DNA of 41,351 nt from a virus (IMGVR_UViG_3300031555_005503:1-41351); one strand, 5' to 3'. Positions 14,688 to 40,282 are shown, counted from the stretch's first letter. The notes: generated by a model from the letters alone, not told the origin. Made by a program: numbers and translations.

Positions 14688-15455
14688 ATGTATATCATTT
14701 TAATAAATGAAGATAATACTATGAGTGCGACTCAGAAACAACGCATTATACAAAGAAGTAAGTTAGTTGATGACTTATGGTTCTTAGTAAACCCAATATA
14801 TAATGGACATGATTTAACAAATGCTACTGTTTTATTAGAATATGTAAAACCTGTAAGTAAAGAATATAAAACAGAAACGCTGGTATTATCTGAAGAAAGA
14901 TATAAAGATTATTTAAAATATATATTACCTGTAGATACAGAATTTACAAAAGAAGCTGGAATTCTTGAAGTTCAATTATCTTTTCTCTATTTAGATGTTG
15001 ATTCTGATGGAGCTCCAGTTCAAAGAGTACGTAAAATTTCTCCTGCGATAAAAGTAAAGGTCTTCCCTATTTCTGCTTGGAGCGATTTTATTCCTGATAG
15101 TGCATTAAGTGCTATAGATCAAAGAATTATAAAACAAGACGCTCAAATAAAGATGATGGCTGATTTAGTTGACAATATGAGCATGAATATGGTTGATGAT
15201 ATCAAATATAATGAAACTGAAGAAACATTACAACTTCAATCTGGTGGATATGGAATTGGAAGTAAGGTTTCTGTTCGAGATATGATTGACGATGGAATTC
15301 CAGTAGTAGATTTAGATAGTGATACTGGAGAAGTTGTTCTTCCAGAAGATAAATGTGATTGTGGATGCGAAGATAATGTAGTTGAATTCGGATATAGTGA
15401 AATTATTAAGGATCCTATTTCTTCAGAAGATGAAAACAACGTAGTTGAATTTTAA
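14688..15455 (+). CDS. BppU-like baseplate upper/adaptor protein
   Basis: ATG 14688 with GGGGTG SD (track GTG 14679); ATVLLEYVKP...YILPVDTEFTKEAGILEVQLSF BppU-type beta-sandwich; ends in duplicated VVEF motif. Confidence 0.6.
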   Translation: MYIILINEDNTMSATQKQRIIQRSKLVDDLWFLVNPIYNGHDLTNATVLLEYVKPVSKEYKTETLVLSEERYKDYLKYILPVDTEFTKEAGILEVQLSFLYLDVDSDGAPVQRVRKISPAIKVKVFPISAWSDFIPDSALSAIDQRIIKQDAQIKMMADLVDNMSMNMVDDIKYNETEETLQLQSGGYGIGSKVSVRDMIDDGIPVVDLDSDTGEVVLPEDKCDCGCEDNVVEFGYSEIIKDPISSEDENNVVEF

Positions 15456-23445: not shown

Positions 23446-24312
23446 ATGGCGGATAAGGCTAAACATGCTTTTGGTGCATTAGAGAATGTTGATGCTGCAT
23501 TAGCTAGTGGAAAAATTGACGCTTTTGATATTATCTTTGCAAAAGATGTTAATGGTAAACCATATGTTGGTTGGATTGACAGAGATGGTAACAAAGTTAT
23601 TTGTGATGATTCTGCAGAATTAGCAAAATTAGAAGCACAATTAGAAGCTGAAATTGCAACAAAGGCCAATGCTGAAGAAGTTGATGAAAAAATTGAAACC
23701 ATTAAAACTTATACTGATGGTAAGGTCGAATCAGCAGTTGAAGCAGCAATGAGCGAACATTTAATTAAAAGATATGTAATTGAGGATGTTCCTGTTGGTA
23801 CTCTCATAGATTATTTTGATAAAGAAATTAGAATTATGTGCCCTGCTGATGCAGAATTTACTAAACAGGCTGTTGGCGTTGGTGGAGATGCTAATACTTA
23901 CTACATAACTTTTAAAACTTATGTACCTAGTGATGATGTAGTTGGTTATATTGAGCATTTAGGAGATAAGTCTGATATTGAAGTTTTAACTGACTTAAAA
24001 ACAGATGAATATGGCAGAAAATATCAGCCAACATGGTTAGGAGTTGCTAAGTATGATGATGCAACTGGTTGGATTTATTATGGAGCTAACTCATCTGTTG
24101 ACAAATATATTGGCTGGAATTATCAAATTGATTGGTATAATGCTGATGGAATGATGGTTAAATCTGATGCGGTAAGAATTAACTTATCTAACGAAGATTG
24201 TCATAATGTTATTGAACCATATTATATGGGAAGCATGAGAAAAGAAATTGATACAAAAATTGAAGAAAAAATTGCAGAAATTGAAGGCGCAATTGAAGTT
24301 ATAGAATTTTAA
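23446..24312 (+). CDS. Hypothetical fibre-region adaptor protein
   Basis: AAGGAGG SD; coiled-coil segments flanking a beta domain; ends IEVIEF. Confidence 0.6.
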   Translation: MADKAKHAFGALENVDAALASGKIDAFDIIFAKDVNGKPYVGWIDRDGNKVICDDSAELAKLEAQLEAEIATKANAEEVDEKIETIKTYTDGKVESAVEAAMSEHLIKRYVIEDVPVGTLIDYFDKEIRIMCPADAEFTKQAVGVGGDANTYYITFKTYVPSDDVVGYIEHLGDKSDIEVLTDLKTDEYGRKYQPTWLGVAKYDDATGWIYYGANSSVDKYIGWNYQIDWYNADGMMVKSDAVRINLSNEDCHNVIEPYYMGSMRKEIDTKIEEKIAEIEGAIEVIEF

Positions 24313-24339
24313 ATTGTTCTAGTATGATGGAGGTATAAT

Positions 24340-24795
24340 ATGGCAAATGCAGTAATGCAACTAGTTGCCACAAACTCCTCTAGAATAAGAGAGTTACCTA
24401 TTAAAAATGGGCAGCTTATTTTTGTACAAGATTCAGGTCGTATTGTTTTTGACTATAAAGATAAAAGAGTTTTTTATAATCAAATTGTAGAACTTGAAAC
24501 AGAAGTTGAAAGACAATTATTAGAAGACCCTTTGAGTGGCTATTATTTTGTTATTGGAAGTGGTTGTCTTTGGTTTTATAAAGATGGTTGGAGTCAGATT
24601 ACAGAAAAGCCTGAAGAAGTCGTACATATCGATGTGGAGCTTCCGCAACTAGGACAAGCTAAAGAAGGAACTCTTTATGTTAATAAAACAGAAAGAGAAA
24701 TAGCGGTTTTTGACAGTGCTTCAAATAATTATATTGTAGTTTCTGATTATACAAATGAAGTGACTGACGAAGATATTGAAAATTTATTTATGTAA
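24340..24795 (+). CDS. Hypothetical fibre-region adaptor protein
   Basis: GGAGG SD; LPIKNGQLIFVQD N-terminal motif; ends EVTDEDIENLFM. Confidence 0.6.
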   Translation: MANAVMQLVATNSSRIRELPIKNGQLIFVQDSGRIVFDYKDKRVFYNQIVELETEVERQLLEDPLSGYYFVIGSGCLWFYKDGWSQITEKPEEVVHIDVELPQLGQAKEGTLYVNKTEREIAVFDSASNNYIVVSDYTNEVTDEDIENLFM

Positions 24796-24800
24796 ATCGT

Positions 24801-24830
24801 ATACACCTCAAAGGGTGTATTTTTTTATTT
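24801..24830 (+). terminator. Terminator-like hairpin
   Basis: ATACACCT/GGGTGTAT stem plus T-run. Confidence 0.65.
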
Positions 24831-24851
24831 AATTAAAAGGAGTTTAAAATT

Positions 24852-26198
24852 ATGGCTGAAATTAAAAAGTATGTATCTTATGACAAATTAGGAAAATATG
24901 ATGCGAAAATTAAGGGCGTTATTACAGCAGGCGATGAAGCTACATTAGCTGCTGCACAGTTATATGCTGAAGGATTAGCATCAAATTATGATGCAGCTGG
25001 ATCTGCAGCGACAGTACAGGGTAAGTTAGATGACGAAGTAGCTAGAGCACAGGCTGCTGAAGCTGCTGCTCTGAAAGCTGGTCAGGATGCTCAGGCAGAT
25101 GTAGATGCTCTGGAAACTTATGTTGGTACTATTCCTGAAACAGCTACTGCTACAGATGTAGTTGGTTATATTGAAGAAAAGACAGCTGGTATTGCTACAG
25201 ATGCGGCTCTGGAAGGATTAACAAATAGAGTAATTCAGGCCGAAAAAGATATTGATGCCATTGAAGCTGACTATCTGAAGGCTGCTGACAAAACTGAGCT
25301 GTCTGATCTTATTACTGCTGAAGCTGATAGAGCTAAGGGTATCGAAGGCGGACTGGAAACTAGACTGAAGGCTGTTGAAGATGACCATCTGGTAGCAGCT
25401 GATAAGACTGCGTTAGAAGGTTCAATTGCTGCTGCTCAGAAGGCTGCTGATGATGTTCAGGCTGAAATGGATGCTTTCAAGCTGGCTGCTGAAGTAGGCG
25501 ATGCTGCTGTTGATACTCTGAAGGAAATCCAGGATTACATTACAACTGACGGTGCTGCTGCTGACGAAATGACTAAGAATATCGGTGCTAATGCTGATGC
25601 TATCGATGCACTGGAAGGAAGAATGGATACAGCTGAAGGAGCTATCGATGCTGCAGAAGGCAGACTGGATGCAGCTGAAGCTGATATTGATGCATTACAG
25701 GCTCTGTTTGGCGAAGGCGATGGCTCTGTTGCTGATATGATCGCTGATGCTGTTGCTGGAGAAGCTGCATTAAGAGAAGCTGGCGATGCTGCCGCTGAAG
25801 CATCTGCTGCTGCTGCTTCACAGGCTGCTGCTACTGCTCAGGCTGCTGCTGAAGCTGCTGATGCTAAGGCTGTTGCTGCTCAGGGCGAAGTAGATGCTCT
25901 GGAAACAGTTGTAGCTGGTAAAGCTGCTCAGGCTGACCTGACTGCATTAACTGGAAGAGTAGAAACTGCTGAGGGCGAAATTGATACACTCCAGTCAGAA
26001 ATGGACGCTGTAGAAGCTGCTGCTGCTGCTAACGCTGAAGCTATTGCTGCTCTTCAGGCTGCTTCCGCAACTCACGCTACAAAGACTGAATTAGAAGCTG
26101 AAGTTACAAGAGCCAAGGCTGCTGAAGAAGCTAATGCTGCTGCTATTGCTGCTTTTGTAGAAGTTTCCGAAGAAGAAATTAACGCTCTTTTTCAGTAA
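24852..26198 (+). CDS. Ala-rich long coiled-coil fibre/shaft protein
   Basis: 448 aa Ala/Asp/Glu-rich heptads; DTLKEI motif; N-tag KKYVSYDKL, C-tag EVSEEEINALFQ. Confidence 0.65.
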   Translation: MAEIKKYVSYDKLGKYDAKIKGVITAGDEATLAAAQLYAEGLASNYDAAGSAATVQGKLDDEVARAQAAEAAALKAGQDAQADVDALETYVGTIPETATATDVVGYIEEKTAGIATDAALEGLTNRVIQAEKDIDAIEADYLKAADKTELSDLITAEADRAKGIEGGLETRLKAVEDDHLVAADKTALEGSIAAAQKAADDVQAEMDAFKLAAEVGDAAVDTLKEIQDYITTDGAAADEMTKNIGANADAIDALEGRMDTAEGAIDAAEGRLDAAEADIDALQALFGEGDGSVADMIADAVAGEAALREAGDAAAEASAAAASQAAATAQAAAEAADAKAVAAQGEVDALETVVAGKAAQADLTALTGRVETAEGEIDTLQSEMDAVEAAAAANAEAIAALQAASATHATKTELEAEVTRAKAAEEANAAAIAAFVEVSEEEINALFQ

Positions 26199-26268
26199 CC
26201 CATCTAATTCAAGATTAAACTTTGCATCACTTGATAATTTTATTTTAGAATAAATGAGGTGAGATTAG

Positions 26269-26934
26269 ATGGGATATATTAAACAAAATTTTGTAAGTGG
26301 TCAGACTTTAAGAGCTGACCACTTAAATCACATTGAAGATGGAATTGTTTCTATCTCTAAAGCTGGTTGCGACTGGAATTTAATGGATAATAAGCCGTTT
26401 TATGATAACACTACAGCTGATCTAATGTTTGAATTGGATGTGACGTTATCTCGTATCCAGCAAATTGAGGGGAGCTATTACAGCGGTTCTGCATCAACTA
26501 CGTTTTATTTAGAAGACTCACCATATTATTCTTATTTCAAAGCGAATACAACATATCGAGTAACAATAGGTGACAGAGTAGAACTATTAGTTAAGGGTGG
26601 TAATGCCCCAACTTTATATACTGATAAAAATAGTAGCGGTAATTTCGATTCTACTTGTGAAGGGTTTTACTTTATGAGAACTGGCGGTCAGATGCTTAAT
26701 ATTCATCTGGATAGTACCTACGGAAATGGTGAAAGTGAGATCACTAAACATATTATCGTCGAAAAAGTTGATATCGACCTTAAAACTCTTGACGAAATAT
26801 ACCTGCCTGACGACTATATCAACAGTCTTATCGATACTAAATTAGATGGACTGGATGAAAAATACCCAACAAAAGAATATACAAACGAACTCATAGATGC
26901 AAAGTTGGGGGTGATCGAGAATGGCACTTACTGA
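26269..26934 (+). CDS. Hypothetical fibre-region protein
   Basis: GAGGTG SD; FVSGQTLRADHLNHIEDGI and DW....KPFY motifs; ends VIENGTY. Confidence 0.6.
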   Translation: MGYIKQNFVSGQTLRADHLNHIEDGIVSISKAGCDWNLMDNKPFYDNTTADLMFELDVTLSRIQQIEGSYYSGSASTTFYLEDSPYYSYFKANTTYRVTIGDRVELLVKGGNAPTLYTDKNSSGNFDSTCEGFYFMRTGGQMLNIHLDSTYGNGESEITKHIIVEKVDIDLKTLDEIYLPDDYINSLIDTKLDGLDEKYPTKEYTNELIDAKLGVIENGTY

Positions 26935-27661
26935 TAAGTTAACAGCGATTGCTGACGGTTTCAGAGCCAGCAGAGGCACGACTAATCCATTATCCCTTGA
27001 TGATATGGCGATATTAGCTGCTGAGGCTGTTGGTGGGGGTAGTGATGATACGACTCTTAAAGATATTATCGAAAGAACTGCTGTAAATCCAGTATTACCT
27101 AGTGATTTAACTAAAATTGGTGATTCCATGTTTTATAAGTGTGAGGACTTGAAATTAACGTCATTACCTGCTGGAGTTACAACAATTGGTGATAATGCTT
27201 TCGGTTATTGTACCAATTTAGCATTAATATCATTGCCTGCCGGACTTACATATATCGGGATGCGTGCTTTCGGTTATTGTGATAATTTAGCATTAACGTC
27301 ATTACCTGCTGGAGTTACATATATTGGAGATTATGCGTTTGATGAGTGTATCCGCTTGAAATTAACGTCATTGCCTGCTGGAGTTACATATATCGGGACG
27401 CGTGCTTTTGCGGAGTGCATTAATTTAGCATTAACGTCATTACCTGCTGGAGTTACAACAATTGGTGCTAATGCTTTCGCGCAGTGCTCAGATCTTACTG
27501 AAATCACATTTGAAGGCACGCCAGATTCAATAAACCAAAAAGCTTTCTATTTATGTACTAATCTCAGAACCATCAACGTTCCATGGGCTGAGGGTGAAGT
27601 TTCAGGTGCTCCTTGGGGTGCGACTTATGCGACTATCAATTATAATTATACAGAAGTATAG
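26921..27661 (+). CDS. BspA-type leucine-rich repeat (LRR_5) protein, candidate receptor-binding module
   Basis: Repeats of L.LTSLPAGVT.IG..AF..C; 14-nt overlap with upstream gene. Confidence 0.85.
   Translation: MALTDKLTAIADGFRASRGTTNPLSLDDMAILAAEAVGGGSDDTTLKDIIERTAVNPVLPSDLTKIGDSMFYKCEDLKLTSLPAGVTTIGDNAFGYCTNLALISLPAGLTYIGMRAFGYCDNLALTSLPAGVTYIGDYAFDECIRLKLTSLPAGVTYIGTRAFAECINLALTSLPAGVTTIGANAFAQCSDLTEITFEGTPDSINQKAFYLCTNLRTINVPWAEGEVSGAPWGATYATINYNYTEV
27149..27493 (+). repeat. Five tandem 69-bp (23-aa) LRR units
   Basis: Units start at 27149, 27218, 27287, 27356 and 27425; near-identical ttaacgtcattacctgctggagttaca core. Confidence 0.95.
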
Positions 27662-27706
27662 TTGTAAGGATATCTAAAAGTGTTTTTTAAATTAAATTAT
27701 TATTTT

Positions 27707-27736
27707 GAGTAGGGGTTCTCTCCCCTACTCTTTTTT
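27707..27736 (+). terminator. Intrinsic terminator
   Basis: Perfect GAGTAGGGG/CCCCTACTC stem plus T6. Confidence 0.85.
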
Positions 27737-27786
27737 ATATATGTTATAAAAAAATTAAATCTTGATAATTATAAAGGGAATAAGAA

Positions 27787-28375
27787 ATGAATAGCAAAAA
27801 AATATTTATCTTTATCAGGACTGTCCATTTTTTATTCTAAGTTTAAAGAATGGATGAGTTCTACATTTATTACAGAAGAATATGTAGATACAAAAATTGC
27901 GGATTTAGTTAATTCTGCTCCAGAAACATTGGACACTCTTGGAGAACTTGCGACCGCTTTTCAAGAAAATAGAGAGGTAGTTGATGTATTAAATGAAGCA
28001 ATAGTAGTTAAAGCAGATAAAACTTATGTTGATGAAGCTATTGCTAATATCCCAACAGAATCAGATATCTTTATGGTAAGTTGTCCTGATGGAAGCACAA
28101 TTTCTCATACTTTTGAACAAATCAAAGAAGCTATTGATGGCGGAAAAACAGTTTATGCTTATGTATATGGTGAACACATTATACCTTTAACATATGTTGC
28201 TGACGATGCATCTTTTATTAAATTTAGTTCTGTTAGAAACCAAGATACAACAACTTGGATTGATGAACTAATTGTCAACAATGATAATAGTTTTGTAGTT
28301 AAGCATGAAGATTTATTAGGTTCAGTTTCTATTACAGAAAATGAATTAGATATTTTAGAATCATTATTGATATAG
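27787..28375 (+). pseudogene. Fibre adaptor gene with apparent +1 frameshift near the start (track ORF 27854..28375 is its downstream part)
   Basis: ATG 27787 has AAGGGA SD 7 nt upstream. Removing one A from the A7 at 27796-27802 gives MNSKKYLSLSGL fused to the 27854 ORF. Body has LVNSAPETLDTLGELA fibre motif. Confidence 0.55.
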
Positions 28376-28386
28376 GGGGTGAGTGA

Positions 28387-29823
28387 ATGAGTAGATTATA
28401 CGACGTGTTAGAGCATATTATTGAAAAGGTAAATAAATCTGTAAAATTTGAAGAAGGACAGATTTTAACCGATGCTGAAAAACAAATAGTATTAACTAAC
28501 TTAGGTTTGACTAATATAACTCCTGGAACCCCCACACCTTCTCCAGAAGAAACAATTACAACAGAATATGTGTATACCTATGACGGTGACACCAATTCAG
28601 AAGAGCATAGTTGGATTACAAATTATAGCAATATTAAAGTGTTTGCTAAAATGGGCGATATTCCAACCGGCAACCTAAATTTAATTGGAGCAACAATTTT
28701 TAGAACAAATCCTAGTAATCAATGGCTGGATAGAATTTTTACTATCACGCAAGAACATCTTGATAAAGTTTTAAATAAAGCTGAAACGGATATTCCTGCA
28801 GTGCAAGAAGGTTTAATCCAAATTTACGACATGATGGCTTCTGATTTTTCAGAATTTACAGTGTTGTGTATTTGCACTAAACCAGGATGGTATAATGTTT
28901 GTTTCGATGACTGGTATGAAATTATCAACTTTCCAGAAACTGGCATTTATGCTTACGATAAACGCACTTATGGCGGAAACGATTATGCGCAAACTTTTAC
29001 TTTTTCCGTTACCACTACTGTTAATAACTCTGGTTCAAACGATTCTAGTATCGAAGGAATAGATACAAGCATTCCAACACAATATAATGGAAATGAAATT
29101 TCTATGTTTAGTCGTGGCATTTGTATTGGAGATAGCGTAACCGAAGGTTCTTTTGATAATGCAGATGGAGGAGCTATTGTAAAACGTTTTTCTTATCCTG
29201 CAATCTTAGAAAGAATTACTGGAGTAGAAATGATAAATGCGGGCGTTGCTGGATTGACTTCTCAAACTTGGTACGAAGCCACATTAGATAGTACTCCTCA
29301 TTGGGGAACTTGGGTGAACCAAGAATGGGTATGGGACATGAATCCGGTAAATAGTGGTAATGATATTATTAGTAAATCATTAGATTATTCTAATTTTGAT
29401 TTTGCTATTATTCATTTAGGAATTAATGATTTGGCTCCTCTTTATGATAACTCAAAAACAATCGAAGAAATTTTAACAACTTTTGAGACCTATATAGGTT
29501 ATATTATTAGAGATTTAAAAGCCGCTAACAGTGGAATTAAAATCTTTTTAGCTACAATTATTCCAAGCTATGCAACACCTTCCAATTTAACCTATAAACA
29601 GTTAAATGAGAAAATTGCGGAAATTGCAAATGCAACCGAAAATACTTTCTTGTTAGACTTAACTTCTTATTCTGCATTGGCTTCAAAACCAGAGTATAAT
29701 GTAACTCATCCTACCGCACTTGGTTATCATAAACTTGCTAATGAAATTAAATCTTATATTAGTTATATTATTAGTAAAAATTTAGATAATTTCACTAATA
29801 TACAGTTTATTAATTTATTATAA
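28387..29823 (+). CDS. SGNH/GDSL esterase with N-terminal anchor module
   Basis: Blocks IGDSVTEG, INAGVAG, IHLGIND and NVTHPTALGY. Confidence 0.8.
   Translation: MSRLYDVLEHIIEKVNKSVKFEEGQILTDAEKQIVLTNLGLTNITPGTPTPSPEETITTEYVYTYDGDTNSEEHSWITNYSNIKVFAKMGDIPTGNLNLIGATIFRTNPSNQWLDRIFTITQEHLDKVLNKAETDIPAVQEGLIQIYDMMASDFSEFTVLCICTKPGWYNVCFDDWYEIINFPETGIYAYDKRTYGGNDYAQTFTFSVTTTVNNSGSNDSSIEGIDTSIPTQYNGNEISMFSRGICIGDSVTEGSFDNADGGAIVKRFSYPAILERITGVEMINAGVAGLTSQTWYEATLDSTPHWGTWVNQEWVWDMNPVNSGNDIISKSLDYSNFDFAIIHLGINDLAPLYDNSKTIEEILTTFETYIGYIIRDLKAANSGIKIFLATIIPSYATPSNLTYKQLNEKIAEIANATENTFLLDLTSYSALASKPEYNVTHPTALGYHKLANEIKSYISYIISKNLDNFTNIQFINLL
28390..28509 (+). repeat. 120-bp N-terminal module, copy 1 (copy 2 at 29845-29964)
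   Basis: Ungapped alignment, 34/40 aa identical; 14 synonymous and 6 non-synonymous codon differences. Confidence 0.9.
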
Positions 29824-29832
29824 ATATAAGAG

Positions 29833-32046
29833 GTGAATAAAATAAGTAGATTATATGATGTTTTAGAACAAATTATTGAAAAGGTAAATAAATCAGTAAA
29901 ATTTGATGAAAGTCAAATATTAACTGAAGAAGAACGACAAATTGTTTTAACTAATTTGGGATTAGATAATTCACCTTCAATGCCTGTAAAAATAAATATA
30001 GAACCAGAAGATAATGATATTCCAAAAGTATTCATCGATGGAGTAATTCCTAGCACTAAAGATGAAGTATTGGCGGAATTAACATATATTTCAAAAACAT
30101 TATCTTTCCATTCTTATATTGCAATTAAATGTCAAGGAACTTCTTCTATGTCTTATCCTAAGAAAAATTTTACTATTAAATTATTCAAAGATGAAGATAG
30201 AAGTGAAAAAATGAAAGTTAATTTTAAGGGATGGGGAAAACAAAATAAATTCTGTTTAAAAGCTAATTGGATTGATATTTCTCATTTAAGAAATGTGGTT
30301 TCTGCAAGAATTTGGGGAGATATTGTTAAGTCTCGTTCTAATTATGAAGAATATCCGGAAGAACTTAAAACAAGTCCAAATCAAGGTGCTGTTGATGGAT
30401 TCCCAATCAAAGTATATAATAACGGAATATATCAAGGAAGATATACTTGGAATATTCCAAAAGATAAATGGATGACTAATATGGATGATAATTTAGACGA
30501 GCATTGTGTTTTATGTGGCGAAAATTATGATAGTGGATGTTTTCGCGCATTACCTGTTATTGATGAAAGCGATTGGTCTGATGAAATTCATGACACAGTT
30601 CCGCAATTAATTAAAACAAGTTGGACTAATGTAATTAATTTTGTTATGAATAGCTCAGATAGCGAATTTAAAACAAATATTGGTAATTATTTTGATTTGC
30701 AGAGTTTAATCGATTATCATATATTTGGCATGTATATTTGCGGGATTGATCAATATGGTAAAAATCAAATATATATGACATATGATGGAATCAAATGGAT
30801 TGCCTCAATGTATGACTTAGATAGTACTTGGGGGCTGTATTGGAATGGCCAAACAATGCTTAATTATAATTATGAAAGAAGACAATTTGAAGATCAAATT
30901 CAAGGGCGTTTAGGCAATTTATTGTATGAAAAATTAGAACAGAATTTCTATACTGAATTACAAGCTCGTTGGGAAGAATTAAAATCTTCTGCTTTAAAGT
31001 TGTCTAATGTGATTAATCATTTTGAGAGAATGGCTGATTTAGTTCCACAAGAATTGATAAAAGAAGATTATGCTTCTACAACTGCAAATGGTCAATATAC
31101 AAGTATCCCATCTGTTTCTAAAAATAACATTCAACAAATTAGAAATTTTGCAGTATCTCGTATGCTTTGGACAGATGAATATTTGAATTCACTAACACCA
31201 ATAGAGCGAGTACCATGTACCGATATTACTTTAAATACATTTGAATTATACTTCGATGAAACAACTGAGTCTACACAGTATGTAGATGTTACTGTTTCAC
31301 CTTCTAACACTACAGATAAAGTTGTTTGGAAATCAAATGATGAGTCTATTGTAACAGTAAGTAAAGGATATATTACAGCTCATAGTATTGGTAATACAAC
31401 TATTACTATAACTTGCGGAGATTGTTCTAAAACTCTTTATGTGTATGTTACTTATATTAAAGAAGATACTTCAGAAGAAGAAATTATTTATCAATTACCA
31501 GCTACTACAACATTTAATGGGTCAAATTATATTGACACTGGGGTTGCTCCTCTTGCAGAGGATACGCCATTTACAGTATTTGTTGATTGGATCGATACAA
31601 ATGAAAGTGAATTTGTGGCAAGTAAATATGTAGTTATGCATTGCATGAATGAAAATAGTCCATATAATGGTATGATATTACAATACGCCCCAGCTGGTGT
31701 TGTTTCTGAATATAGACAAAATTCTAATAGCATTTCTTCTAACTCTACTGGTGGATTAATTGAAAATGCTGATCTTGAAAGAGTAAAAGTTGTATATCGT
31801 AAGGCTGCTGATGGAACAATTACTGTTGCTAGATGCTACAATGAAAATGGTCAAATCCATAAGAATGAAAAAGTTATGGAATATGTTGCAGTATCTGAGG
31901 CATTAAGATTGGGATGTTATCGTTCTAATTCTGGCGGAACTGGACGTTTTGCTAAAGGTATCTTAAATGACTGTAAGATTTATAATTATGCAATCTCTGA
32001 TGAAGAGATGAATGAATTATTATTGTCTACTACAGTTTTATCATAA
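29833..32046 (+). CDS. CotH-family kinase with anchor module, Big_2-like Ig domain and LamG-like domain (start uncertain: GTG 29833 or ATA 29842)
   Basis: KCQGTSSMSYPKKNF, LKANWIDISHLRN, DGFPI, GIDQYGKN, MYDLDSTWG; VSPSNTTDKVVWKS (Ig); FNGSNYIDTG. Confidence 0.8.
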   Translation: MNKISRLYDVLEQIIEKVNKSVKFDESQILTEEERQIVLTNLGLDNSPSMPVKINIEPEDNDIPKVFIDGVIPSTKDEVLAELTYISKTLSFHSYIAIKCQGTSSMSYPKKNFTIKLFKDEDRSEKMKVNFKGWGKQNKFCLKANWIDISHLRNVVSARIWGDIVKSRSNYEEYPEELKTSPNQGAVDGFPIKVYNNGIYQGRYTWNIPKDKWMTNMDDNLDEHCVLCGENYDSGCFRALPVIDESDWSDEIHDTVPQLIKTSWTNVINFVMNSSDSEFKTNIGNYFDLQSLIDYHIFGMYICGIDQYGKNQIYMTYDGIKWIASMYDLDSTWGLYWNGQTMLNYNYERRQFEDQIQGRLGNLLYEKLEQNFYTELQARWEELKSSALKLSNVINHFERMADLVPQELIKEDYASTTANGQYTSIPSVSKNNIQQIRNFAVSRMLWTDEYLNSLTPIERVPCTDITLNTFELYFDETTESTQYVDVTVSPSNTTDKVVWKSNDESIVTVSKGYITAHSIGNTTITITCGDCSKTLYVYVTYIKEDTSEEEIIYQLPATTTFNGSNYIDTGVAPLAEDTPFTVFVDWIDTNESEFVASKYVVMHCMNENSPYNGMILQYAPAGVVSEYRQNSNSISSNSTGGLIENADLERVKVVYRKAADGTITVARCYNENGQIHKNEKVMEYVAVSEALRLGCYRSNSGGTGRFAKGILNDCKIYNYAISDEEMNELLLSTTVLS
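29845..29964 (+). repeat. 120-bp N-terminal module, copy 2
   Basis: See copy 1 at 28390-28509. Confidence 0.9.
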
Positions 32047-32197
32047 GGTAGAAAATGGACTGATATAGTCATTCTTATTAAAATTAAAGCTAATCTGTTT
32101 GGATGTACTGATATAAATAAAAACATTATTTCAAATAATCCATAATAAATTTAAAATATTTATTTTTTTTATTTTCTAAAAAGGAGAAAGTTAAATT

Positions 32198-33448
32198 ATG
32201 GCTAAAAAACAATATTTAGATTATTCTGGCCTGCAAACATATGATGAGCAGATAAAAGCGTATATTAATGCGGCTGATACTGCTACTTCTACTAGTTTAA
32301 CAAACGGAGATATTGTAGTTAAAGAAGCTCAACATGCTACAAATGCAACTAATGCAACTAATGCAACTCATGCGACTTCTGCTGATTCTGCTGCAAGTGC
32401 TAATACAGCTGGCTCTGCTACAAAGGCTACTCAGGATGGAAATGGAAAAGTAATTTCATCTACATATGAAACAAAGACTGATGCCACTTCTAAGCTGACA
32501 GAAGCAAAAGGTTATACTGACACTGAAATTGGAAAAATTACTGCTGGAACTATTGTGGCTGGTAAGGCAACAAAAGATGGTAGTGGCAACACAATTACGA
32601 GTACTTATGAAACAAAGTCTGATGCTACTGCTAAATTAACTGAAGCTAAAAATTATACAGATGGAAAGATTGCAAATTTATTAGATAATTCAACTGAAGC
32701 TGTTGACTCTATCATGGAGCTTGCGGCTGCAATGGAAGATAATGCAGATGCAATCGAAGCTCTTAATGGTATTGTGGCTGGCAAAGCACCCGCTACTCAC
32801 TCCCATGGTATTTCTGATGTGACTAATTTACAGTCTACATTAAATGCTAAGGCTGCTCAGTCAAGTTTAGATTCACATACTAGTAATGGGGATATTCACG
32901 TTACTACTGCTTTAAAGGGCAATTGGAATACAGCTTATACTCATTCTCAAGCTTCTCATGCTCCTGTTGAAGCTGAAAAGAACCAGAATGCATTCTCTAA
33001 TGTAAAGGTAGGTTCTACAACAGTTGCTGCTGATAAAACTACAGATACAATTGAATTTGCTGGAACTAATGTAACTATTACTCCAGATGCGACAAATGAT
33101 AAGGTTACTTTCGCTGTTGCTGATGGTACAACGGGTGCTAAGGGTGTTGTACAACTTACCGATAGTACTTCAAGTACATCTACTACCACTGCCGCAACTC
33201 CTAAAGCTGTTAAATCTGCTTATGATTTAGCAAATACAGCTAAAACAAATGCTGCTACTGCTCAGTCTACAGCCGATGGTGCTGCTACTGTTGCTAATGA
33301 AGCTAAGTCTGCTTCCACAGCTAATACAACAGCAATTGGAAGTAACACCTCTGCTATTTCTGCTTTAACTGGTAGAGTAGCTGCTTTAGAAGGACTGGAT
33401 ACTTGCGAACGTATTCCGACAGCTTCTATCACAGCCCTCTTTTCTTAA
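32198..33448 (+). CDS. Tail fibre protein (Ala/Thr/Ser-rich) with phage tail fibre repeat
   Basis: AKGVVQLTDSTSSTSTTTAATPKAVKSAYDLA matches the phage tail fibre repeat; internal duplication KATxDG.G..I.STYETK.DAT.KLTEAK.YTD; N-tag KKQYLDYSGL, C-tag IPTASITALFS. Confidence 0.85.
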   Translation: MAKKQYLDYSGLQTYDEQIKAYINAADTATSTSLTNGDIVVKEAQHATNATNATNATHATSADSAASANTAGSATKATQDGNGKVISSTYETKTDATSKLTEAKGYTDTEIGKITAGTIVAGKATKDGSGNTITSTYETKSDATAKLTEAKNYTDGKIANLLDNSTEAVDSIMELAAAMEDNADAIEALNGIVAGKAPATHSHGISDVTNLQSTLNAKAAQSSLDSHTSNGDIHVTTALKGNWNTAYTHSQASHAPVEAEKNQNAFSNVKVGSTTVAADKTTDTIEFAGTNVTITPDATNDKVTFAVADGTTGAKGVVQLTDSTSSTSTTTAATPKAVKSAYDLANTAKTNAATAQSTADGAATVANEAKSASTANTTAIGSNTSAISALTGRVAALEGLDTCERIPTASITALFS

Positions 33449-33475
33449 TTACATATAAATATACAGGCAACAGAT

Positions 33476-33505
33476 AACCCCACTTCATGTGGGGTTTGTT
33501 TGTTG
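33476..33505 (+). terminator. Terminator-like hairpin
   Basis: AACCCCAC/GTGGGGTT stem, TG-rich T tail. Confidence 0.55.
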
Positions 33506-33566
33506 TAATTACAATATAAATTTAGAATTTTATTATCAATTAAATAAATTAAAGGAGGAAGTATTT

Positions 33567-33938
33567 TTGGCAAACGAAAAAAAGTATGTTGGTCTCACAG
33601 GTTTGATTAGTGTAATAAATAATATTAAGACAAAATATGCTCAGATACAACACGCACATGTTAAGTCAGAAATAATAGATTTTCCAAGCATTCCTTTTAA
33701 GACAAGCGAGCTGATAAATGACAGTGGCTTTAAAACTACTGATAATAATACAACATATACGCTAAGTAAATCAGGAGATGTTGTTACTTTAATTGGCAGT
33801 GATGATTCTACATCTATATTTGTCATTGAAAAAGAACTTCCTACTGTAACTACTAATAATGAAGGGGATTTCCTTAGAGTTGTAAATGGGGTTTGGGCTG
33901 CGGCAACAATTCCTAATGCAGAGGGGGCGAGTTTCTAA
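33567..33938 (+). CDS. Short fibre adaptor protein
   Basis: TTG 33567 with AAGGAGG SD (track start 33489 lies in a hairpin); N-tag KKYVGLTGL; LPTVTTNNEGDFLRVVNGVWAA; ends AEGASF. Confidence 0.65.
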   Translation: MANEKKYVGLTGLISVINNIKTKYAQIQHAHVKSEIIDFPSIPFKTSELINDSGFKTTDNNTTYTLSKSGDVVTLIGSDDSTSIFVIEKELPTVTTNNEGDFLRVVNGVWAAATIPNAEGASF

Positions 33939-34456
33939 TGGCCGAATATTTAATTCAAGAATCTACTTTAAATAATATTGGTGATTCAATTAGAAATACG
34001 TTAAAAGAATCAAATGTATATACGCCAGCAGAAATGGCTAATAAAATAAATACTCGTATGCTTGGAGTTCCTGATCCTATTGTTGCAGGAGATTATCCTA
34101 TTTATGGATTAACTACTAGTTCAAAAATTACAAGCACATCTTATTCCGACTTAGGAGTATATGTTTTTACAGCTAATAGAGCTGGAACATATAGATTTAA
34201 ATGGTGTTGTATGAAACCTGCTGTAACGTTAGGTGGTAGTGGAACTTGTGCAAGTGCTTTATTTTTAAATGATGTATCTCAATTTGAAAATACAAGCTTT
34301 AGTGATAATGTACAATATAATTCAGTAGATGTGACTATGAAAGTTGGAGATGTGGTGCGAATTAAAGCTAAGCATTCTGGCGGTATGTATGCAACATATG
34401 TTTATGGTGTTCATGTCTGTATAGGATGGAGCGATGCTAATGCGTTTTTTGTTTAA
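33938..34456 (+). CDS. Small beta-sandwich fibre-tip-like protein
   Basis: TAATG coupling; N-tag YLIQESTLNNIGDSIR. Confidence 0.6.
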   Translation: MAEYLIQESTLNNIGDSIRNTLKESNVYTPAEMANKINTRMLGVPDPIVAGDYPIYGLTTSSKITSTSYSDLGVYVFTANRAGTYRFKWCCMKPAVTLGGSGTCASALFLNDVSQFENTSFSDNVQYNSVDVTMKVGDVVRIKAKHSGGMYATYVYGVHVCIGWSDANAFFV

Positions 34457-34638
34457 CAAAATCAAAGAGTTTTTTATTGAATTTAAATTATTAAAAGATA
34501 TGATTGAATCGTTAAGAGATGATATTTACAAGATGTAAAATTAGAAAAAGAAATTTTAATCGCCTTATATAAGGTGATTTCAAATAAAAAAAATAATAAG
34601 TAAAATTAAATAAAATTTTAAAGTAAGGAGATATTAAA

Positions 34639-35961
34639 ATGGCCAAAAAACAATACTTAGACCTTACTGGTTTAACAACTCTTGTAGATGAGATTAAAGC
34701 TCTATTATCTGGTAAAGCAAACTCATCTCATAATCATGCCGCCTCCAATATCACATCTGGAACTTTATCTTCTGATAGACTTCCAACAGTTCCTATTGAT
34801 AAGGGTGGTACTGGAGCGACAACGGCTGCGGCTGTTTTAACTAATTTAGGTTTAACTGCTACAGCGGCAGAATTAAATAAAATGGATGGAGTAACAGCTA
34901 CTACAACTGAATTGAATTATGTTGACGGTGTAACTTCTAATATCCAAGCACAATTAGATAGTAAGGCTGCATCCAGTACTCTGTCTTCTCATACAAGTAA
35001 TCAAAAAAATCCTCATGGAGTTACAGCTGCTCAGGTTGGAGCATTACCTACAAGTGGCGGTGCTATTTCTGGAGAACTATCTGTTTCAGGTAAAATTATG
35101 CAGGGAGCTACAAGTTCCGATTCAACCATTGCTAATATGAACAGATATCAATCAGATTTATATGTTCAAGGAGACGGTTCTGCTCCTAATAATCCAAAGG
35201 TCGCTGGGTTCTATCTTGGCAAGAGTCAGTCAGATGAAAATCGTCACATGGATATTGTTTCTGGTGGAGACTATTCATATATTGACTTTAATCAAACAAG
35301 TCACGAATCAGATTATGATGCTAGACTTTTAGTTAATGTAAATACTGGTGATACTCAGTGGATGTGGGGCCCTGGAATGACAACCCCTATCTTTAATGTA
35401 ATGGGATATTTAAGGAAAAATGGTGTAGATGTAGCCACATTAAATGACCTTGGCGGTCATACTGGTGATAAATCTAATCCACACGGAGTAACAGCTGCCC
35501 AGGTTGGGGCTTATACTAAGGCAGAAATTGATAGTGCTTTAGCTGGCAAGCAAGCTGCTGGAAGCTACGCTGCAAGCAGTCACACTCATGATGATAGGTA
35601 TTACACTGAGTCTGAAATTAATACTAAATTAGCTGGCAAATCTGATACAAATCACACTCATAATTATGCTGGCTCATCTTCTGCTGGCGGAGCAGCGACA
35701 TCTGCAAATAAAGTTAATAGTTCTTTAACTGTTAAGTTAAATGGTGGTTCTACAGAAGGAACTAATATGTTTACGTTTAATGGTTCTGCTGCAAAAAGTG
35801 TAAATATTACGCCCGCTTCTATTGGTGCTCAGGCTGCTGGCAGCTATATGGATTTAGCTTCTGCACAAGCCGCAACTGGCGTAAAAACTTTTAGCAATGG
35901 AATTAAAATTGGTTCAGCTAAACTTACTTATTCATCAGATGCTTTAATAATTTCATTTTAA
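34639..35961 (+). CDS. Tail fibre protein
   Basis: N-tag KKQYLDLTGL; GTLSSDRLP, GGTGATT, two NPHGVTAAQVGA repeats, HTHDDRYYTESEI. Confidence 0.8.
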   Translation: MAKKQYLDLTGLTTLVDEIKALLSGKANSSHNHAASNITSGTLSSDRLPTVPIDKGGTGATTAAAVLTNLGLTATAAELNKMDGVTATTTELNYVDGVTSNIQAQLDSKAASSTLSSHTSNQKNPHGVTAAQVGALPTSGGAISGELSVSGKIMQGATSSDSTIANMNRYQSDLYVQGDGSAPNNPKVAGFYLGKSQSDENRHMDIVSGGDYSYIDFNQTSHESDYDARLLVNVNTGDTQWMWGPGMTTPIFNVMGYLRKNGVDVATLNDLGGHTGDKSNPHGVTAAQVGAYTKAEIDSALAGKQAAGSYAASSHTHDDRYYTESEINTKLAGKSDTNHTHNYAGSSSAGGAATSANKVNSSLTVKLNGGSTEGTNMFTFNGSAAKSVNITPASIGAQAAGSYMDLASAQAATGVKTFSNGIKIGSAKLTYSSDALIISF

Positions 35962-35975
35962 TTAGGAGGTAAACT

Positions 35976-37247
35976 ATGGCAACCGTAGAAATAAAATGTG
36001 ATTCTGCCCCTAATTCAAAAACTTTTAAAAATTCTGCGTCCGTTCGTGTAACTTATACAACCTCTGGTGGGACTTTAAAAATCACTGAAATCGAAGGAAA
36101 AAGAACTGATGGTTATACTACTTATAACTACGACACCAGCTCTTGTACCGTAATTGTTGGCGGAGTGTCAAAAACCGTTTCAATCAATCAATCGATGTTT
36201 GGTCCTTCATGGAAAAAATGGGAAGCTACTGATACCACTTGGAGCGGTATTACTTATAGTTCGGTAAATATTACTGTTAAAATGCCTTCTGGAAGTTTAG
36301 CTCATAGTAGTTCGGAATTCAAAACAGATAGTGAAATACCAGTTCCTAAAAGCACTTATACAGTTTCATACAATGCTAATGGCGGAAGCGGAGCTCCGTC
36401 TAGCCAAACAAAGACATATGGAACTACTTTAACATTATCTAGCACTAAACCAACTAGAGCATCTGTAGTGGAAGAAAATACAACTACAACATATACTTTT
36501 AAAGGTTGGGGAACATCTGCATCTTCTAAAACAGCATCGTATCAGCCTGGTGGAAGTTATACAAAAAATGCCGATCTTTATTTATATGCAATATGGGAAT
36601 CCACTGCTACTACTAAATATTATATTAATTATGAAACTGGTACTGGGCTAATGATTCCATCGCAAGTAAAACCTTCCGGAAGTGGGATAGTTTTAACAAG
36701 CACTACGCCAGAAAAAAATGGATTTACTTTTCTTAGATGGAATACAAGTAATGATGGGAAAGGTACAAATTATAATTCAGGCGCATATTATTCTGCTAAT
36801 AGTAATGCTACATTATGGGCAATTTATAGTGCTTGGACACATACAGTTTCATATAATGCTAATGGCGGAAGCGGAGCTCCTTCAGGGTTTACTAAAACAG
36901 GTGGGTCAAGCGTTATATTATCAGAAACAGTTCCGACAAGAAGTGGATATGTTTTTAGATATTGGAATACAGCATCGAATGGCTCCGGTACTAAATATGA
37001 ACCTGGTGATGAATATATATATGAACAAAATGGTGGGACTGTAACATTATACGCTATTTGGGCATCTGAAAATATTTCAATTGGTATTTCTGATAAGAAG
37101 TGTAATGCTTTATATTTCGAAGAAGATTCTACTTTATTGGGATTTAAAGATAATTCAGCTGTTGTTGCGGGTGAATTTATAGAGGGATCGTCATCTGTTA
37201 AAATTCAGCCTGGAAAGATGAGTTTTTTTGAAATAATTGAAAAGTAA
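35976..37247 (+). CDS. InlB B-repeat (Listeria-Bacteroides repeat) containing surface/fibre protein
   Basis: Three repeats of Y.VSYNANGG...P..G..F..W.T...G..Y..G..Y....LYAIW. Confidence 0.8.
   Translation: MATVEIKCDSAPNSKTFKNSASVRVTYTTSGGTLKITEIEGKRTDGYTTYNYDTSSCTVIVGGVSKTVSINQSMFGPSWKKWEATDTTWSGITYSSVNITVKMPSGSLAHSSSEFKTDSEIPVPKSTYTVSYNANGGSGAPSSQTKTYGTTLTLSSTKPTRASVVEENTTTTYTFKGWGTSASSKTASYQPGGSYTKNADLYLYAIWESTATTKYYINYETGTGLMIPSQVKPSGSGIVLTSTTPEKNGFTFLRWNTSNDGKGTNYNSGAYYSANSNATLWAIYSAWTHTVSYNANGGSGAPSGFTKTGGSSVILSETVPTRSGYVFRYWNTASNGSGTKYEPGDEYIYEQNGGTVTLYAIWASENISIGISDKKCNALYFEEDSTLLGFKDNSAVVAGEFIEGSSSVKIQPGKMSFFEIIEK
36358..36880 (+). repeat. 40-bp direct repeat pair (36358-36397 and 36841-36880)
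   Basis: atacagtttcataYaatgctaatggcggaagcggagctcc, one mismatch, 483 bp apart and in frame. Confidence 0.9.
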
Positions 37248-37259
37248 AAATAAAGAGTG

Positions 37260-37301
37260 ATAAGGCAGATCATTTAAAGATCTGCCTTATTATATTTTTT
37301 T
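37260..37301 (+). terminator. Intrinsic terminator
   Basis: 12-bp perfect stem ATAAGGCAGATC/GATCTGCCTTAT followed by T-rich tail. Confidence 0.75.
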
Positions 37302-37320
37302 ATGTTAAAAGGAGTTTTAT

Positions 37321-38016
37321 ATGGCGCAATTAAAAAATACAACAATTGACGGCACGTTAAATGTTAGTGGGGCTGCATCTTTTGGAGATAAAGCAACAAC
37401 AAGACAAAATTTAAATTATATAGGTGCAAATCCTGTAACTTTAAATACTGACACTCCTGCAACATGGAGAGCATTAGGTATGGGTGTTGCATATATTCAA
37501 TCTAATGGAATTATAAATAACCAGCCATATCAATATGGTTTTATTGAAAATAGAGTAGCAGGAGAATTAATTTCTCAAACATGGACTTCTATGTCTGGAA
37601 ATGGCGAGACATATCATCGGGAAGGAAATGCAAGTGGTTGGTATTCAGGTAGCGCAGAATGGGTACAAGTTGTAGACAAAAATAATGCATTTAAAAAAAT
37701 TTGGGATGGAACATGGTTAAGTGATGGCAATGACATAGCTGAAACGCCAAATTATACTATGTTTTTAGTAGGATTAAAATCAAGTAGTGGAGAAGTACAA
37801 GGTACTCTTGTTCCGGTGTTTAAAAATGGAACGTTTATCAGAGGTATTGGTGGATATGTAAGCTCTACTACTACAGACTATACTTATCATTTTTCTGCAA
37901 ATTTATCTGGTAATTCTTGGACTTTAGTAAATGCTGATTATTTATGGCATGGAAGTGAAAGTAACCATGGGAAAAGAGTGTTATGTACTCCTACTATTAT
38001 TTATGGAGTAATTTAA
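37321..38016 (+). CDS. Fibre knob/tip-like protein
   Basis: AAGGAG SD; MAQLKNTTIDG start; PYQYGFI..SQTW..YHREGN..GW knob-like segment. Confidence 0.55.
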   Translation: MAQLKNTTIDGTLNVSGAASFGDKATTRQNLNYIGANPVTLNTDTPATWRALGMGVAYIQSNGIINNQPYQYGFIENRVAGELISQTWTSMSGNGETYHREGNASGWYSGSAEWVQVVDKNNAFKKIWDGTWLSDGNDIAETPNYTMFLVGLKSSSGEVQGTLVPVFKNGTFIRGIGGYVSSTTTDYTYHFSANLSGNSWTLVNADYLWHGSESNHGKRVLCTPTIIYGVI

Positions 38017-39268: not shown

Positions 39269-40282
39269 ATGAAAAAAATACAACCTATTACTCAAGAAGA
39301 ATGGGAAAAATGTAATGAGTTTAATAGGAATATAGTCGATGAATTTTTAAATAATTCGTTTCACTTATCTCCGCAGAGTAAGAAAGCGTATAAATCAAAC
39401 TTGATGATTTGGTTTAACTGGGTAAGAAAGAATTTAAATAATAAACCGCAATATGAAATTAAACCGCTTGAATATTTGCGATATCAAAGCTGGCTCTTAT
39501 CTATAGGCCATAGTTCATCAGATATTAGTAATAAACGAGCTGCAATTTCTTCTCTCTGTAATTATATGGAGATGTATTATATAGATCAATTTCCTAATTT
39601 CAGAACTTGTATTGCTAAGGGTATGAGTAAACCTGAGGCAAAATTTGTGCGTGAAAAAATTCCGCCTACAAAAGAAGAAATGGAGAAGTTGTTTACTGAA
39701 CTTGAGATGCGTGAAGAATGGCAAAAACTTGCTTATTTAAAATATACATATGATACAGGTTGTAGACGCGCAGAAAGTATTCAGTTATTAAAAGAAGTAG
39801 TTGATTATATGCCAATTGTCAAAGAAAAAGAAATTGAAGACGAGGATGGCAATAAGCATACTGTTGTAATTAAGTACTATCGTAGCAATAGTACTCGTTG
39901 TAAAGGGCGTGGCGAAACTGGCAAGATTCGTAAACTGGTATTCACTCAAGATACAATGGATGCAATAAATAAATGGCTGGAAGTCCGTGGAGATGACGAC
40001 TGCCCCTATGTATTCGTATCTGGTATTGGAAAAAATGTAAAGCAAATTAGCGATAGCGCACTTAATAAATGGGCGTCTGGTATATTCACTGAAATTCTTG
40101 GACGTCGTTTTCATCCGCATATATTGCGTGAAGCCAGAGCTACAACGGCGGTAGTTGAAGAAGGAAAATCTATTGAATCGGTTCAAAAACTTTTGGGTCA
40201 TCAAGATTCCAGCACAACGGTTAATCATTATATCATCAGAGATGAAACTGATGAAGAAATAGACGAATTATTTATAGACTAG
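39269..40282 (+). CDS. Tyrosine recombinase (phage integrase family)
   Basis: TGCRRAE (R), KGRG (K), HPHILR (HxxR), LGH and NHY (Y) all present. Confidence 0.92.
   Translation: MKKIQPITQEEWEKCNEFNRNIVDEFLNNSFHLSPQSKKAYKSNLMIWFNWVRKNLNNKPQYEIKPLEYLRYQSWLLSIGHSSSDISNKRAAISSLCNYMEMYYIDQFPNFRTCIAKGMSKPEAKFVREKIPPTKEEMEKLFTELEMREEWQKLAYLKYTYDTGCRRAESIQLLKEVVDYMPIVKEKEIEDEDGNKHTVVIKYYRSNSTRCKGRGETGKIRKLVFTQDTMDAINKWLEVRGDDDCPYVFVSGIGKNVKQISDSALNKWASGIFTEILGRRFHPHILREARATTAVVEEGKSIESVQKLLGHQDSSTTVNHYIIRDETDEEIDELFID

Follow-up and report, generated by a model that had tools for sequence, protein, structure and literature searches.

The viral sequence IMGVR_UViG_3300031555_005503:1-41351 (41,351 nucleotides, analysed as a whole and referred to here as the window) makes up the leading 41 kb of an IMG/VR virus record, 110,740 bases long and estimated to be 64% complete. 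Every gene of interest in the window lies on the plus strand, among them a train of fourteen fibre-type genes (23446-38016, plus strand), several of whose products carry short peptides that recur at the termini of otherwise unrelated proteins. An earlier note on this DNA had proposed that such C-terminal tags (C-tags) and N-terminal tags (N-tags), of matching types A, B and C, could chain fibre modules into a branched appendage. The best explanation of the whole, and in our judgement a probable one, is that matched terminal tags dock separately encoded fibre modules to one another, giving chains with variable tips.

The genes concerned, each named by its first coordinate, are as follows (aa, amino acids; nt, nucleotides; C-A, N-A and so on denote C-tag A, N-tag A and their counterparts).

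24340-24795, plus strand: putative chain starter, 151 aa; C-tag A at residues 138-150 (24751-24792) as its sole tag, N-tag A being absent
24852-26198, plus strand: putative extender fibre, 448 aa; N-tag A at 24852-24920, C-tag A at 26157-26195
26269-26934, plus strand: fibre protein, 221 aa; C-tag B variant GVIENGTY at 26908-26931; 14-nt overlap with the next gene
26921-27661, plus strand: putative payload, BspA-type leucine-rich-repeat (LRR) protein, 246 aa; N-tag B at 26921-27016, matched by the N-B hidden Markov model (HMM)
27787-28375, plus strand: converter candidate; N-tag A (frame from ATA 27791), C-tag C ITENELDILESLLI at 28331-28372
28387-29823, plus strand: putative payload, GDSL/SGNH esterase, 478 aa; 49-aa N-tag C at 28387-28533
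29833-32046, plus strand: putative payload, CotH kinase-like protein with Big_2 and LamG-like parts; N-tag C at about 29842-29985
32198-33448, plus strand: putative extender fibre, 416 aa; N-tag A at 32198-32266, C-tag A RIPTASITALFS at 33410-33445
33567-33938, plus strand: putative converter or adaptor, 123 aa, TTG start; N-tag A at 33567-33638, C-tag B IPNAEGASF at 33906-33935; stop codon overlapping the start of the next gene (TAATG)
33938-34456, plus strand: putative payload of no recognised fold, 172 aa; N-tag B at 33938-34033 (N-B HMM, E 2e-15)
34639-35961, plus strand: putative terminal fibre, 440 aa; N-tag A only, at 34639-34707; matches PHROG tail-fibre families
35976-38016, plus strand: two further tail genes, 35976 (Flg_new repeats) and 37321, with no verified tag

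Terminal tags in the window and in related loci

N-tag A is common to five genes (24852, the frame at 27787/27791, 32198, 33567 with its TTG start, and 34639), as the earlier note had it. Over the first 30 residues, pairwise local scores among these starts are 33-65, whereas the maxima of shuffled sets average 34 and never exceed 44, and the likeness ends after about 23 residues. When all six frames of the 110,740-base contig were searched, a simple N-A pattern matched only those five gene starts, an N-B pattern matched only 26921 and 33938, and a simple N-C pattern matched only the gene starts named for it. The two proteins with N-tag C, 28387 and 29833, are identical at 37 of their 49 N-terminal residues (76%) and unlike elsewhere. 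At the opposite termini, the C-tag A ends of three fibre proteins score 31 with one another, which is the 99.9th percentile of shuffles, and the C-tag B ends VIENGTY and AEGASF are only loosely similar to each other, although both are kept in relatives, with an N-B gene next. The N-terminus of 26269 belongs to another recurrent type, M.YIKQNF..G..L.A..LN..EDGI.

For comparison we retrieved 80 viral loci by alignment of the small gene 22939, which stands at the head of the fibre train, and added more from homologues of 24340 and of 26269. The resulting set of about 100 related loci, comprising 1,406 open reading frames (ORFs) and 568,608 residues, represents one clade of related uncultured phages together with two short contigs. 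Tag HMMs were grown from the window's own tags and have the consensus MAEKKYLDLTGLTEYDEKIKAKI for N-A (about 23 aa) and EAITNDEINALF for C-A (about 12 aa). N-A gave 63-66 unique matches starting within the first 25 residues of the 1,406 ORFs and 1 internal match, the latter being a start called too far upstream (MPNTKKYVSL after an internal Met); C-A gave 38-54 unique matches ending no more than 12 residues from the C-terminus and 0-1 elsewhere in the 568,608 residues. Both are therefore terminus-specific modules rather than general fibre repeats, and the type A C-tag, borderline inside the window, becomes clear with the relatives. The invariant residues are K, K, Y, L and K in N-A and D, L and F in C-A.

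The type of a C-tag predicts the type of N-tag on the next gene. Of the 61 unique junctions that follow a C-A gene, 45 lead to N-A, none to N-B and 16 to neither, whereas after a C-B ending (pattern E-x-x-[STG]-[FYV]) the next gene carries N-B in 6 of 7 cases, N-A in 0 and neither in 1; in that last case (L003) a 141-aa ORF is inserted between the C-B gene and the N-B gene. The corresponding figures for the 600 junctions after an untagged gene are 25 with N-A, 4 with N-B and 571 with neither. When whole-protein families were collapsed, C-A was followed by N-A at 19 of 30 junctions, compared with 12 of 150 otherwise, and shuffling of gene order within loci (n = 2,000) gave a mean of 9.8 and a maximum of 18 against the 19 observed. 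A side observation concerns a second ORF of about 470 aa (MDKIVDKHIDLNQFPQDKQG...), which is found at differing places in fibre trains (L017:10554-11966, L096:2144-3553) and in L096 sits between a C-A starter and its N-A partner; this ORF and the 141-aa ORF of L003 may be mobile insertions.

The order of the tags also has a direction. Genes with C-A only have an N-A gene next in 21 of 27 cases and an N-A gene before in 1 of 26, and genes with N-A only have a C-A gene before in 22 of 35 cases and a C-A gene next in 2 of 34. Typical trains run C-only, N+C, N+C, (N+C), N-only, as in L032, L044 and L098; in L032 the train is -C163 NC446 NC676 NC136 N-231, and L097 has a similar one. The two tags also occur together, both being found in 66 loci, neither in 26 and one only in 7, and those homologues of 24340 that do not carry C-A occur in loci having no N-A gene. 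None of the 1,406 ORFs is a "Rosetta stone" fusion in which C-A and then N-A occur within a single chain.

The earlier note had remarked that each gene ending in C-tag B is followed directly by one starting with N-tag B, and this junction is kept in the relatives. The N-B HMM matched 9 non-redundant gene starts in the fetched DNA, and in 8 of these the gene and its upstream neighbour overlap (by 1 or 14 nt). All the genes upstream of N-B end in a short peptide that contains E and has F, Y or V as its last residue. Apart from this ending the upstream proteins, at 83 to 1,086 aa, are unrelated to one another, and four of them open with N-A: 33567, a 124-aa protein (L005/L025), an 83-aa protein (L097) and a 1,086-aa protein (L039). 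As judged from their termini, the N-A/C-B adaptors of 83-124 aa are converters of the kind the earlier note had envisaged, for example 33567 and the 83-aa protein of L097. The bodies of the N-B proteins are mutually unrelated (136 to 632 aa). Homologues of 26269 in two unrelated short phage contigs, L093 and L094, keep this ending and still overlap, by 14 nt, a gene that opens with N-B; L094 also encodes an amidase and a holin of the SPP1 type. Extenders, converters and payloads with an N-tag only all occur, then, for types A and B, and the type A tags stand in the order C-only, N+C, N-only. For type C, the shared N-module stands (37 of 49 residues) and the pairing with a C-tag is replicated nowhere; relatives of the 51-aa N-C module were sought in viral contigs and none was confirmed.

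We modelled the type A joint as a complex of three copies of 24340 and three copies of residues 1-110 of 24852, with a 12-row alignment for each and the trimeric state assumed. This 3:3 prediction reached an interaction prediction score from aligned errors (ipSAE) of 0.74 (runs 0.76, 0.74 and 0.71), compared with 0.02 for the best of three controls, with a predicted local distance difference test (pLDDT) value of at least 88 for the partner and at least 94% contact agreement between runs. Of 80 solved complexes 58 reach the tool's mark for this score, as do 2 of 110 mismatched pairs, rates that hold only roughly here because the alignments were user-made and the chains present in multiple copies. 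In all three copies the predicted interface comprises residues 138-143, 145-146 and 149-150 of 24340 and residues 4-17, 19 and 23 of 24852, so that in the model it coincides precisely with C-tag A on one side and N-tag A on the other; the contacts are consistent with one strand from each partner, side by side, followed by a short acidic C-A helix lying on a lysine-rich N-A helix. Profile searches of solved structures gave no match for the 24340 family and chance-level matches only for the 24852 N-terminus (E 0.4-0.7). Because neither family has a sequence relative in the PDB, it is unlikely that the score reflects memory of a known complex. The 3:3 model is a prediction, and as such it supports A-type binding.

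Several further termini recur in the related loci. At L005:18222-19044 and L097:19390-20430, small proteins end in ..ATVSEV..YL.I* and are followed by a gene starting MAE.KDKVIT.ESL, a candidate pair (SEV..YL.I / MAE.KDKVIT) that is absent from the window. In 8 of 8 cases a type A variant with the C-end AF..VFG is followed by an N-variant [YF][LV]D..GL that does not have KK, which suggests sub-specificity within type A. A C-terminal signature ..[VI][VI]EF* is found on a protein of about 255 aa (14688-15455) that precedes a giant protein, on the 23446 family (23446-24312) and on an unrelated 'MAIDSKNL' family, and is present across many loci (for example L025 and L097); the giant protein itself (end 22878) always closes with ..IEISF*. 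No single cognate N-tag is evident for this signature, because the next genes start variously (the giant protein with MSLSF.DSLK, the 24340 family, the AFG family). An N-terminal type M.N.SI.AAFER.W.HV recurs on otherwise differing fibre proteins; such recurrent types, with M.YIKQNF the one on 26269, are found in fibre genes of L016, L093, L095, L097 and L025 and in L099:12885. A C-terminal ..VQIITWEDDD* recurs in L095, L096 and L100.

Proposed assembly and its alternatives

We propose that the fibres would not be single proteins but would consist of segments, each with its own gene and probably trimeric, which short docking modules at their termini would hold together non-covalently. In type A, the upstream segment ends in an acidic peptide some 12 residues long, [IV]-[ST]-x-x-[DE]-I-x-x-L-F, which would pair with a basic N-module (about 23 residues; KKY[LV]xLxxL...K.K) at the start of the following segment, three chains on three. 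The starter 24340 would present C-A; the extenders 24852 and 32198, with N-A and C-A, would add length and present C-A again; and the chain would terminate either in the N-A-only fibre 34639 or in a converter (33567, or 27787 if expressed) that switches the tag type. In type B, a fibre or converter ending in E-x-x-[STG]-[FYV] would be capped by the product of the translationally coupled next gene, which consists of an N-B module and a variable body, either an LRR (26921) or the 172-aa protein of no recognised fold (33938). In type C, the GDSL esterase and the CotH-like protein share a third N-module and would probably use one site, to which they would be recruited through the C converter. Because there are five N-A modules to three C-A ends, alternative segments probably compete for equivalent sites on different copies of the fibre, which would give the virion several fibre versions and tips. 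We infer branching solely from these five N-A and three C-A genes in the window, and we likewise infer the binding of types B and C, the stoichiometry and the location in the virion.

Several points weigh against this proposal. Judged on the window by itself, C-tag A does not rise above chance, and the integrase (39269-40282) ends in DETDEEIDELFID, which scores 41 with 24340, above the mutual score of the fibre ends; this resemblance calls for caution with short acidic ..I..LF motifs that lack context. In the window, 24852, which has C-A, precedes 26269, which has no N-A, and in the relatives 16 of 61 unique C-A junctions have no N-A next while 25 N-A genes follow untagged genes. Synteny inflates the counts, because the comparative data are one clade and two short contigs; collapsing families and shuffling gene order lessen this inflation without removing it, and the N-A and C-A counts are not independent events, coming as they do from a single clade of related phages. 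The tool used for the complex is calibrated on single-chain pairs, not on 3:3 assemblies with user alignments, and the monomer model of 24340 is poor (mean pLDDT 53). Neither the type C C-tag, at the end of 27787, nor the N-C module recurs elsewhere in the fetched data, so that the type C pairing is adjacency in one genome, a single case. The end of 35976 and the start of 37321, which the earlier note had offered as a fourth pair, recur nowhere in the fetched DNA and show no tag, and that pair is not supported.

A different account of type A is that the N-A modules all plug into one common baseplate socket, that C-A is a cap closing the trimer, and that the adjacency of the two results from tandem duplication within a fibre family. 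It fits the many proteins that carry both tags and lie in tandem like duplicated paralogues, the excess of N-A over C-A genes in the window (5 to 3) and the N-A genes found behind untagged genes. Tandem duplication alone does not explain the directional order, since C-only genes have their N-A neighbour next rather than before and N-only genes rarely precede a C-A gene, and it leaves aside that the C-only starter and the N-only terminal bodies are unrelated to the extenders. With a predicted interface that unites both tags and controls near zero, we regard a common socket as fairly unlikely.

For type B alone, the N-B proteins could instead be chaperones of fibre assembly, like Tfa or T4-type gp38, that are absent from the virion. 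Tail-fibre chaperone genes usually sit immediately downstream of the fibre gene, and the N-B gene is placed in this way and translationally coupled (-1 or -14 nt). The N-B bodies are large and highly variable (136 to 632 aa), an adhesin-type LRR_5 domain suits a receptor-binding tip better, and the small converters (83-124 aa) seem dedicated to presenting C-B, all of which speaks against a chaperone; we consider such a role quite unlikely.

It is very improbable that the conserved ends are DNA-level recombination linkers for the exchange of fibre cassettes with no protein-protein role. In favour of such linkers, the tags lie exactly at module borders and close relatives exchange the bodies between them: in L065-L091 one and the same 356-aa gene is followed by N-A genes that range from 88 to 990 aa. 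Against them, the closest N-A tags (32198 and 34639) agree at just 45 of 72 nucleotides; between the N-C modules 106 of 144 nucleotides agree and 14 codons differ synonymously. The flanking non-coding DNA is not conserved, conservation is at the level of residues, and linkers leave the predicted interface unexplained. As the keeper of the tags, DNA-level exchange was rejected on the low nucleotide identity, and this identity, the synonymous differences and the differing flanks together argue that selection acts on the peptides. Cassette exchange could be a secondary benefit of docking tags.

Returning to docking, in a wider form of the proposal the tags would make up an assembly code of several channels, with three or more mutually orthogonal kinds of pair (A, B and SEV..YL.I/MAE.KDKVIT) and a mixed population of multi-segment fibres on each virion; we put this forward tentatively, as possible but doubtful. 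If it is true, gene termini alone would suffice to read, and to re-program, the composition and tips of the fibres across uncultured phages of gut Clostridia. Phages of these hosts are nearly all uncultured, and their long trains of fibre genes cannot yet be converted into a picture of the adsorption organ. With a tag grammar, both the architecture of the fibre and the range of alternative tips for receptor binding could be predicted from sequence. Such a grammar would also account for the mounting of enzymes and adhesins (the esterase, the CotH-like protein and the LRR protein) on the virion, and would mark natural module borders for exchange experiments in laboratory phage-host pairs. The tag pairs are, moreover, short peptides (12 and 23 residues) that can be tested biochemically.

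Gene starts, gene bodies and the phage

The start of the converter candidate 27787 did not stand as the earlier note had given it, the ATG being out of frame with the tagged ORF. That ATG has a good ribosome-binding site, yet it reads MNSKKIFIF and reaches a stop after 17 codons, and the tagged frame opens directly after a TGA, with ATA at 27791. A run of seven A residues lies at 27796-27802; six instead would restore the frame and give MNSKKYLSLSGL. The gene is thus either frameshifted (a real variant or an assembly error), or read by a +1 slip, or started at ATA 27791. The A7 run could be an on/off switch for the converter that would carry the esterase and CotH-like payloads, or an assembly error. 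ATA codons align with the ATG of paralogues both at 27791 (ATA GCA AAA AAA TAT) and at 29842 (ATA AGT AGA TTA). At the latter gene the GTG listed at 29833 sits within the ribosome-binding site GAGGTG, and the start is likely ATA 29842 rather than GTG 29833; ATA starts may be used to lower expression.

The larger bodies have clear Pfam matches: LRR_5 in 26921 (E 5e-55, 185 bits; gathering cut-off 27.7), Lipase_GDSL_2 in 28387 (E 1.6e-16, 61.7 bits; cut-off 32.9), CotH in 29833 (E 3.5e-29, 102.8 bits; cut-off 23.8), together with Big_2 (E 1.1e-8) and a weak LamG-like match in the same protein, and Flg_new in 35976 (101.5 bits; cut-off 27). The extender 32198 matches Phage_fiber_2, and residues 7-70 of 27787 have PHROG tail-fibre matches. 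The small proteins 24340, 26269, 33567, 33938 and 37321 have no Pfam or PHROG match, and a search for homologues of 33567 in viral contigs matched its internal repeat only and was uninformative. The N-terminus of 24340 presumably resembles Mtd-type fibre starts, and the C-terminus of 33567 a foldon hairpin; neither likeness had library support and neither was used.

Upstream of the fibre train, the window carries the following genes.

1672, plus strand: large terminase
3529, plus strand: portal, with head and tail genes next
15517-22878, plus strand: giant protein of 2,453 aa

Downstream of the fibre genes are genes for a peptidoglycan-binding protein, the integrase and a ClpP-like protease. 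A gene for a RusA-like Holliday junction resolvase (13538-13984; PHROG E 4e-19) lies amid the structural gene block. The portal is 27-35% identical to the portals of Alicyclobacillus phage KKP_3916, Bacillus PJN02, Brevibacillus Sundance and Lactococcus phage PMBT69, all of them large siphoviruses of Firmicutes. The phage analysed here is itself probably a siphovirus. Relatives of gene 24340 were found on contigs of metagenome-assembled genomes from Clostridia, Lachnospiraceae and Wujia, and on one contig labelled Paludibacteraceae, and the host is therefore most likely a gut Clostridia bacterium. We read the window as the structural arm of a phage that is large and probably temperate and that most likely infects gut Clostridia/Lachnospiraceae. 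No close DNA relatives were found among GenBank phages. Terminator-like hairpins are no commoner in the region than in shuffles (8 compared with 6.3), so we derived no operon model from them.

Comparison with known fibre joints

The long tail fibre of T4 is assembled in series from the separately encoded segments gp34, gp35, gp36 and gp37 (PMC5537660, PMC3004832). As in that fibre, the segments proposed here would lie end to end, with gene order as assembly order and a distal piece bearing the receptor-binding part; the collinearity of gene order is indeed found here, in the direction C-only, N+C, N-only. Unlike in T4, the joints would be short tag pairs reused up to four or five times per train on unrelated bodies, and the phage is a probable siphovirus of a Gram-positive host. 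No gp35-like hinge protein was identified here, and the search for homology to gp34, gp35, gp36 or gp37 returned only generic tail-fibre PHROGs and Phage_fiber_2/PTR repeats.

In T2, T6 and S16-type phages the adhesin gp38 caps gp37, a conserved N-terminal attachment part holding a variable binding part (PMC3157838, PMC12892980). Type B is similar in that a gene directly after the fibre gene encodes a conserved N-terminal part and a variable body, a likeness read from the genes alone; the N-B genes have this position and layout, with overlap in 8 of 9. The N-B bodies differ in being an LRR or having no recognised fold, rather than the glycine-rich gp38 fold, and the fibre end differs in being a short E-x-x-[STG]-[FYV] terminus. 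The gp38 families had no Pfam or PHROG match among the fibre-region proteins.

In podophages that infect Klebsiella, namely KP32, K11 and KP34, a conserved docking peptide of receptor-binding protein (RBP) 2 binds a branching domain of RBP1 (PMC13352976, PMC6872550), as has been shown experimentally (PMC13352976). The window has in common with KP32 a short conserved N-terminal docking element and exchangeable modules, a likeness in function only, and N-A, N-B and N-C are each a conserved N-terminal module on otherwise unrelated proteins. The KP32 peptide binds an internal T4gp10-like branching domain and forms a single branch, whereas here the predicted partner is the extreme C-terminal peptide of the preceding protein and the result would be chains. 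Pfam and PHROG scans of the fibre genes found no T4gp10-like branching domain.

The tailspike complex of Ackermannviridae (CBA120/Det7 type) comprises binding proteins that are encoded in a row and joined in one complex through N-terminal modules (PMC11414711). There, folded N-terminal domains form a branched hub, whereas here terminal peptides would pair, and no homology was detected. In phage A1002 the "chain-like fibers" consist of dimers that hang from a rope protein (PMC13730344), a different arrangement that was set aside. Searches with the 24340 family and the 24852 N-terminus found no relatives of the tag system in the PDB or among GenBank phages; in particular, tblastn of 24340 and of the first 60 aa of 24852 had no match in 50,697 phage records.

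Outside phages, the docking domains of polyketide synthases are matched C- and N-terminal modules that order subunits, in several orthogonal classes and with collinear genes. The earlier note had likened the tags to these domains, which holds as an analogy only and not as homology: the synthases are an enzyme assembly line, their docking domains form dimers and not trimers, and there is no sequence relationship.

The principle thus has precedents in the long fibre of T4 (serial segments), the gp38 adhesin (tips) and the docking peptide of the Klebsiella phages. In function the tag system appears to be like these known fibre joints, but in all the sequence tests made it comes out as a member of none of them. 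The features of its own are very short matched terminal peptides, their serial reuse, several orthogonal types and small dedicated converters.

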